This document shows positions 21,902-21,976 of a stretch of DNA of 64,000 nucleotides, one piece after another. A program made the position numbers and the translations under genes. Numbering within the stretch: position 1 is the first letter of the stretch; every line of letters begins with the position of its first letter. The stretch is from contig NC_083277.1 of the NCBI RefSeq assembly GCF_963506605.1, forward strand, positions 7,812,001 to 7,876,000, given 5' to 3'. This stretch comes from Zootoca vivipara (lineage: Eukaryota). The notes beneath the pieces were generated by a model, which saw nothing but the letters and a program-made list of their open reading frames with translations, was not told where the DNA came from and made no database searches.

Positions 21902-21976
21902 AGTTTCACTTTCTCAGTTTTTAGTCACTGGGCGTCACCCTTCCTGGAAATGACTCAGAAACTCAGTGACCACGTG
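21902..21976. promoter_or_regulatory. ISRE, GAS, AP-1 and E-box cluster upstream of TRIM copy B
   Basis: AGTTTCACTTTC 21902-21913 (exact AGTTTCNNTTTC), TTCCTGGAA 21941-21949, TGACTCA 21951-21957, CACGTG 21971-21976. Confidence 0.7.

Follow-up and report, generated by a model that had tools for sequence, protein, structure and literature searches.

A conserved proximal ISRE and a recurrent ISRE-less promoter tract in a lacertid TRIM gene array

Reptile TRIM arrays have recently been shown to contain potent antiviral genes, many of which were induced by interferon in iguana cells. In the portion of the PMC12262214 supplement covered here, interferon induction was recorded for 21 of the 29 iguana transcript rows labelled "RFP-like" (at least 34 such rows in all), with induction taken as a log2 fold change >1 and an adjusted p <0.05 after 6 h of interferon; the label is automatic and does not establish orthology with the lizard clade. 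The same paper, which described the squamate harbiTRIMs, reported conversion in the coding domains, and its main text, in the sections covered, made no mention of an ISRE or a promoter (PMC12262214). Consensus strings for the ISRE and IRF-E were taken from parts of PMC10287828, PMC6954429 and PMC2654144, and the AP-1/IRF and ETS-IRF composite strings were used as quoted or defined in PMC4821649. According to the part of PMC6954429 covered, one ChIP study found binding at less than 1% of canonical ISREs. No account of the control of single reptile TRIM paralogs, or of the promoters of this family, was found in the literature searched, in which the harbiTRIM material was covered in part. The ISRE, the GAS and conversion between paralogs are textbook matters, and the family-wide conservation and reshuffling described below were not found in that literature.

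The window analysed here, a 64,000-nt stretch of the Zootoca vivipara genome, contained three intact TRIM genes, A, B and C, all on the minus strand and all with a RING, a B-box, a coiled-coil and a PRY/SPRY (Table 1); the C-IV arrangement (RBCC-PRY/SPRY) was found in one open frame. The exons were mapped using an intronless family member, which gave frames of 479, 486 and 479 aa for A, B and C with AG/GT at the introns. Pfam cut-offs were exceeded for RING, B-box, PRY and SPRY in all three, and the coiled-coil exon, which had no Pfam match, was assigned from its position and sequence. Gene A (ATG at 6507) ran beyond the left edge of the window, and its fifth exon was partly duplicated (L042:1434-1493). 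The frame of gene C was open provided that a 30-nt exon, whose donor reads TT, is left out; this optional exon (34212-34243 in C, TT for GT) was absent from A, and its skipping preserved the frame. B and C were whole-gene tandem duplicates, ~87% alike. The window also held an LTR retrotransposon in an intron of gene A (92-2284), with two 365-nt repeats, 99% alike, flanking a 474-aa RT/RNase H frame that we take to be Copia-like, and, between B and C, a LINE with a 1036-aa open frame (24211-27321, minus strand), presumably RTE/BovB-like, a relative of which breaks exon 1 of L034. Inverted repeats and GC-rich tandem repeats (unit ~62 nt) at 28437-30976 adjoined a run of N (31091-31293), and pieces of SCAN-domain and C2H2 zinc-finger genes, with domains recognised by eye, adjoined the TRIM array at 45161-59306.

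Table 1. Positions of the genes, promoter elements and RNA 5' ends in the window.
Feature	Position	Strand	Remarks
TRIM gene B	9440..21873	-	8 exons, open frame of 486 aa, each intron with AG/GT
Gene B exons	21873-21457, 20474-20379, 18529-18299, 14645-14623, 13766-13648, 12789-12757, 11666-11637, 9951-9440	-	
TRIM gene C, tandem sister of B	31974..43047	-	ATG 43047
Proximal ISRE/IRF-E of gene B	21902..21915, core 21902-21913	-	-40 from ATG
Distal slot of B, ETS-IRF/kB position	21930..21940	-	reads GGGCGTCACCC
GAS + AP-1 of B	21941..21957	-	GAS relaxed TTCN3GAA, abuts AP-1
E-box CACGTG of B	21971..21976	.	in 24/32 close promoters, 0/17 outgroup
Cassette of gene A	6537..6602	-	ISRE-less tract 6537-6549, kB 6564-6573, ETS-IRF 6569-6578, GAS 6575-6583, AP-1, E-box
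Cassette of gene C	43077..43142	-	ISRE-less tract 43077-43089, kB 43105-43114, ETS-IRF 43109-43118, GAS, AP-1, E-boxes
Pile-up of RNA 5' ends	21876..21880	-	8 molecules at 21876, 7 at 21880, run X21

The three genes belonged to a lacertid "RFP-like" TRIM expansion with ~100 exon-1 copies on one chromosome arm. Exon 1 gave 128 protein matches genome-wide, mostly on C2 at 6.3-17.9 Mb and in several sub-clusters of RING-B-box first exons; many of these matches were second pieces of one exon, and 100 loci were taken from them. L095, which had no RING, was dropped, leaving 99 paralog upstream regions for examination. In L002, two nearly identical SPRY exons lay 2.8 kb apart (L167, L168). The near database relatives of A, B and C were lacertid proteins carrying the automatic label "zinc finger protein RFP-like", and no one-to-one mammalian ortholog was found among the top database matches. 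An identity of A, B and C with the harbiTRIMs was considered and rejected, as the harbiTRIM N-termini published for the common lizard, taken by eye from the PMC12262214 supplement and assigned by locus match rather than by a joint tree, mapped to L066, L069, L080, L082 and L083. These loci lay at C2:17.68-17.73 Mb, ~10 Mb from B, and were 51-57% identical to it; one of them, L066, had a canonical ISRE at -74.

The core of the proximal element of gene B read AGTTTCACTTTC, the sole AGTTTCNNTTTC in the window. It fitted GAAANNGAAA, RNGAAANNGAAACT and the IRF-E consensus, whereas A and C, which read GTTC(T/C)GCCTTCCC in this place, did not. Rechecking of the letters bore out the initial annotation, which had described an exact ISRE in B and different letters in A and C. 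The motif positions in that description also held, and its siting of the cassette was revised: the genes lie on the minus strand, and the cassette precedes the ATG (21873) by 30-105 nt. Motifs were called with consensus strings, not position-weight matrices. The B element by itself was not above chance, with one AGTTTCNNTTTC seen in the window against 0.25 expected and at least one in 23 of 100 shuffles, and only the conserved position of the motif among the paralogs made it convincing. A GAAAN1-2GAAA match in the 23-nt slot at -50 to -28 was found in 35 of the 63 paralogs whose exon 1 was ≥60% identical to that of B, comprising 15 of 33 at ≥76% (one of which, L064, was a deletion product) and 20 of 30 at 60-76%, and in 2 of 17 paralogs at 50-60% and 1 of the 19 less similar ones. 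The background was ~0.3% per slot, a rate from one window, and the region from -300 to -95 gave one match over the same 63 paralogs, which are not independent samples. The two spacer letters of the ISRE varied while both half-sites stayed, even where the flanks diverged; this selection-type conservation was assessed among the paralogs of one genome. The element of B is very likely a real ISRE.

Whether the ISRE was gained in B or lost in A and C had been thought impossible to tell from three copies, and the promoters of the other paralogs and of an outgroup, a 17-copy cluster near 12 Mb, settled the matter as loss in A and C. The ISRE was present in 15 of 32 close promoters, a set from which L030-L033 were left out for poor upstream alignment, and in 14 of the 17 outgroup promoters, which also had the distal GGAAAC in 14, the GAS in 8 and a kB match in none. 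Since the outgroups mostly carried the ISRE and none of them kB, the state of B (ISRE present, kB absent) is the old one. From the compared promoters, the proximal ISRE is reconstructed as ancestral for the family and as lost in A and C rather than gained in B, and A and C are placed as derived on both the ISRE and the kB counts. A more distant copy, L053, also had a kB match.

In the distal slot of B, two letters found only in this gene (21936-21937) destroyed the GAAAC IRF half-site and created TGACG, and the slot had a KLF-like CGCCC end similar to that of the outgroups. The loss unique to B in this slot is that of the IRF half-site (GAAAC). The letters earlier read as a CRE half-site were confirmed; TGACG occurred in B alone of the 32 promoters and is most likely incidental, and the gain of a CRE as a meaningful change in B was rejected. 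In A and C the slot matched the GGGRNWYYCC kB consensus, on the plus strand in A and on the minus strand in C, and it doubled as an ETS-IRF composite element, GGAANNGAAA, in 24 of 32 copies, A and C included, a feature that the initial annotation had overlooked. The window contained 19 matches to the loose kB consensus, with 17.5 expected, which is the chance level, and the nearest promoter relatives of B (L002, L008, L012 and L014) were likewise without kB. In gene A the kB match overlapped the ETS-IRF element, the GAS was of the strict form, TTTCNNNGAAA, and the distal slot also held AGTTTCNTTTC (6567-6577). The GAS (21941-21949), AP-1 (21951-21957) and E-box of B were preserved in all three genes, as annotated initially, and the GAS/AP-1 junction of B read GAAATGACTCA on the plus strand, an AP-1/IRF composite-like string common to A and C.

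RNA reads placed the ISRE of B close to the start of a transcribed gene. Stranded reads from three raw-read runs labelled with the same species covered exon 1 in the gene's own direction, and exon 1-exon 2 junction reads of the B type were found in X22 (16 reads, exact match to B exon 2) and X23 (56 reads, agreement 0.87); because the donor-end reads matched B exon 2 and exon 1 was covered, B is spliced and expressed. Reads were placed at 96% identity, so that a part of them derives from paralogs, and the true starts lie beyond the read ends. The depth in X21 fell from 43 to 0.2 across 21851-21910, sparse cover in X22 extended up to 21911-21940, and no reads were found at 21941-22073 in three runs. 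Another drop in X21 depth, at 21457-21490, was given no weight. The ISRE lay ~22-26 nt upstream of the main RNA 5' ends and so belongs to the proximal promoter of B, which is transcribed, with paralog cross-mapping as the caveat. The possibility of a splice acceptor immediately upstream of the ATG was rejected, as its AG was not conserved in A and no loose read ends were listed there. In X21, alleles of the ISRE-less copies L009/L010 appeared in 10 of 78 reads at 21806 and 21812, which indicates that a copy can lose the ISRE and still be transcribed.

The ISRE-less tract was found in eight copies, A, C and six others. They shared three A-to-G changes in the ISRE (L018 partly), and seven of the eight shared a fourth, in the GAS at -72. 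Monophyly of the tract copies was rejected by AU tests on exon 1 (p=3e-5, seven copies tested), on the SPRY (p=9e-4) and on the promoter without the ISRE columns (p=2e-6), although the alignments were short and the trees weak (11 of 37 branches open in the exon-1 tree). The markers at -72, -41, -37 and -33 were linked with r2 of 0.83-1.0, against ≤0.53 for exon-1 sites; this tight linkage was confined to -72 to -33, and the compatibility of neighbouring sites was higher than in any of 5000 permutations. A shared derived block in non-sister backgrounds with host-type flanks on both sides, as in ectopic conversion, was clearest between C and L006, which agreed in every letter over the 47 nt above the tract and the 29 nt below it and differed in four letters inside the ISRE. 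The exon-1 sister of A, L025, kept the ISRE, and B itself was a mosaic, with a promoter of the L002 type and a gene body of the C type. As the tract copies did not group together in exon 1, in the SPRY or in the flanking promoter, short-tract gene conversion is indicated. Judged from one genome and a short tract, the ISRE-less tract has likely spread between paralogs by short-tract ectopic gene conversion, and unequal crossing-over may contribute.

The kB consensus and missing proximal ISRE in both A and C, reversed in B, had led to the proposal that B is driven by interferon and A and C by NF-kB, in step with SPRY specificity. This division was not supported over the family. The 32 homologous promoters comprised six with both ISRE and kB, nine with the ISRE only, four with the ISRE-less tract and kB, four with the tract only and nine with other lesions; all four combinations occurred, the ISRE and kB states were independent over the 23 classifiable promoters (Fisher p=0.69), and mutual exclusivity of kB and ISRE was not found across copies. 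A and C also retained the GAS and the ETS-IRF element, whereas the ETS-IRF element of B was damaged. As for the supposed parallel with SPRY divergence, B and C were SPRY sisters (82%, against 77% for B and A), and among 34 copies whose SPRY exons could be tied to exon 1 by position, a weak raw link between promoter state and SPRY distance (p 0.04-0.05) disappeared when recent twin copies were dropped (p 0.14, then 0.23); no SPRY exon of L020, L025 or L033 was found in the stretches examined. Regulation and SPRY specificity look uncoupled, and with a kB consensus at chance frequency the proposed division is very unlikely. An even less probable reading is that the motifs are 5'-UTR sequence without a promoter role and that transcription begins farther upstream. 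It drew on the few X22 reads that cross the ISRE and on a retrocopy on C4 that starts near -210 and holds the whole cassette, including its own GAS and ISRE, so that at least one family transcript had the cassette inside its 5' UTR. This copy (C4:35253279 onward; L013:1678-3147, L131) was an intact intronless 490-aa processed retrogene of the TRIM subfamily, with AATAAA, an A-rich tail and a ~13-nt target-site duplication. Its 5' end, however, lay in a dispersed repeat whose insertion was confined to L009 and L010, both of which now have the ISRE-less tract, and the retrocopy shows an upstream start in one lineage. The repeat (L010:1275-1490 and the matching place in L009; ~220 nt, 17 genome matches) carried CCAAT and GC boxes and was inserted at ~-180; the position of the retrocopy's 5' end inside it suggests that it supplied that start, and the finding fits replacement of the ISRE of L009/L010 after the retrocopy arose. 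The fall in X21 depth, the read-free stretch above it and the half-sites conserved between diverging flanks also stood against a transcription start farther upstream in B.

In our view B probably retains the ancestral ISRE and is predicted to be inducible by type I interferon. The ISRE-less tract of A and C is derived and likely reached these genes by short conversion between paralogs. Two other readings concern what the tract means. Neutral decay, in which a loss-of-function promoter variant drifts through a redundant birth-and-death array, perhaps with GC-biased conversion and with no adaptive division of labour, is a real possibility, if short of probable. All four marker changes were A to G, other ISRE lesions or deletions occurred in nine of the 32 close promoters, and broken copies existed (a stop in L016, the insertion in L034); yet A and C were intact, a single haplotype recurred on several backgrounds (five changes on the exon-1 tree), and dN/dS was 1.42 in the four variable SPRY loops, compared with 0.46 for the framework and 0.35 for exon 1, as pooled pairwise values from non-independent pairs with loop limits set by the analyst. 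Such decay would be compatible with spread of the tract by conversion. Somewhat more doubtful is a switch from ISRE to GAS/ETS, in which the tract trades a type I element for a stronger STAT palindrome and ETS core (-72 G) and leads to interferon-gamma/IL-6-type or constitutive leukocyte expression. We assume that the -72 G improves STAT or ETS binding; it was found in seven of eight tract copies and none of 15 ISRE copies (p=3e-5), A had both the strict TTTCNNNGAAA and GGAANNGAAA, and tract-bearing copies were transcribed. This linkage may nevertheless be mere hitch-hiking inside one tract, the -72 G was absent from C, and the GAS was altered in L017 and L018.

If B retains the ancestral element as we think, ISGF3 or IRF1 would bind its ISRE adjoining the start site, and, by analogy with mammalian work (parts of PMC10287828, PMC6954429 and PMC2654144), the ISRE would act with the GAS (STAT1) in a composite ISRE+GAS promoter. 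Genes A and C, in which the proximal ISRE is absent, would respond more weakly to type I interferon and may still be reached through the GAS (STAT1/STAT3), the ETS-IRF element and the derived kB site. Recombination would reassort each promoter module without regard to the others or to the SPRY loops, which diverge rapidly. A tentative extension, which we regard as rather unlikely, is that short-tract conversion repeatedly switches responsiveness to type I interferon on and off, pasting an ISRE-less haplotype with a stronger GAS/ETS onto genes whose SPRY domains are unrelated and positively selected, while the retrogene exported the ISRE cassette to another chromosome; if true, regulation and target specificity would be shuffled combinatorially in a large antiviral TRIM array. 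The array offers natural near-isogenic promoter pairs, C and L006 (four ISRE letters) and A and L025, which make interferon control at the level of single paralogs and the spread by conversion directly testable, and promoter state flags likely interferon effectors among ~60 uncharacterised TRIMs.

Genes A, B and C resemble the squamate harbiTRIMs in their tandem C-IV TRIM arrays, their chromosome arm, the gene conversion between paralogs and the interferon induction of related genes, as described in the portion of PMC12262214 covered. They have the same domain order as the human C-IV TRIMs, which are interferon-induced with an upstream ISRE/IRF-E, and the ISRE of B fits the consensus quoted for these genes in the part of PMC2654144 covered; the SPRY matched the structures of TRIM21/58/11/7 and butyrophilin. 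Unlike in the human genes, the lizard ISRE abuts the coding exon, and the family is a lacertid expansion. The closest promoter likeness, within the part of PMC10287828 covered, is to the mammalian ISRE+GAS composite promoters of TRIM69, PARP14, APOL6 and UBE2L6, in which, as in B (27 nt), a proximal ISRE and a GAS lie a short distance apart, and the PARP14 arrangement resembles the adjacent GAS and IRF site of gene A. In contrast to these mammalian promoters, the lizard cassette, a predicted composite promoter, has been multiplied over dozens of paralogs with its modules reassorted.
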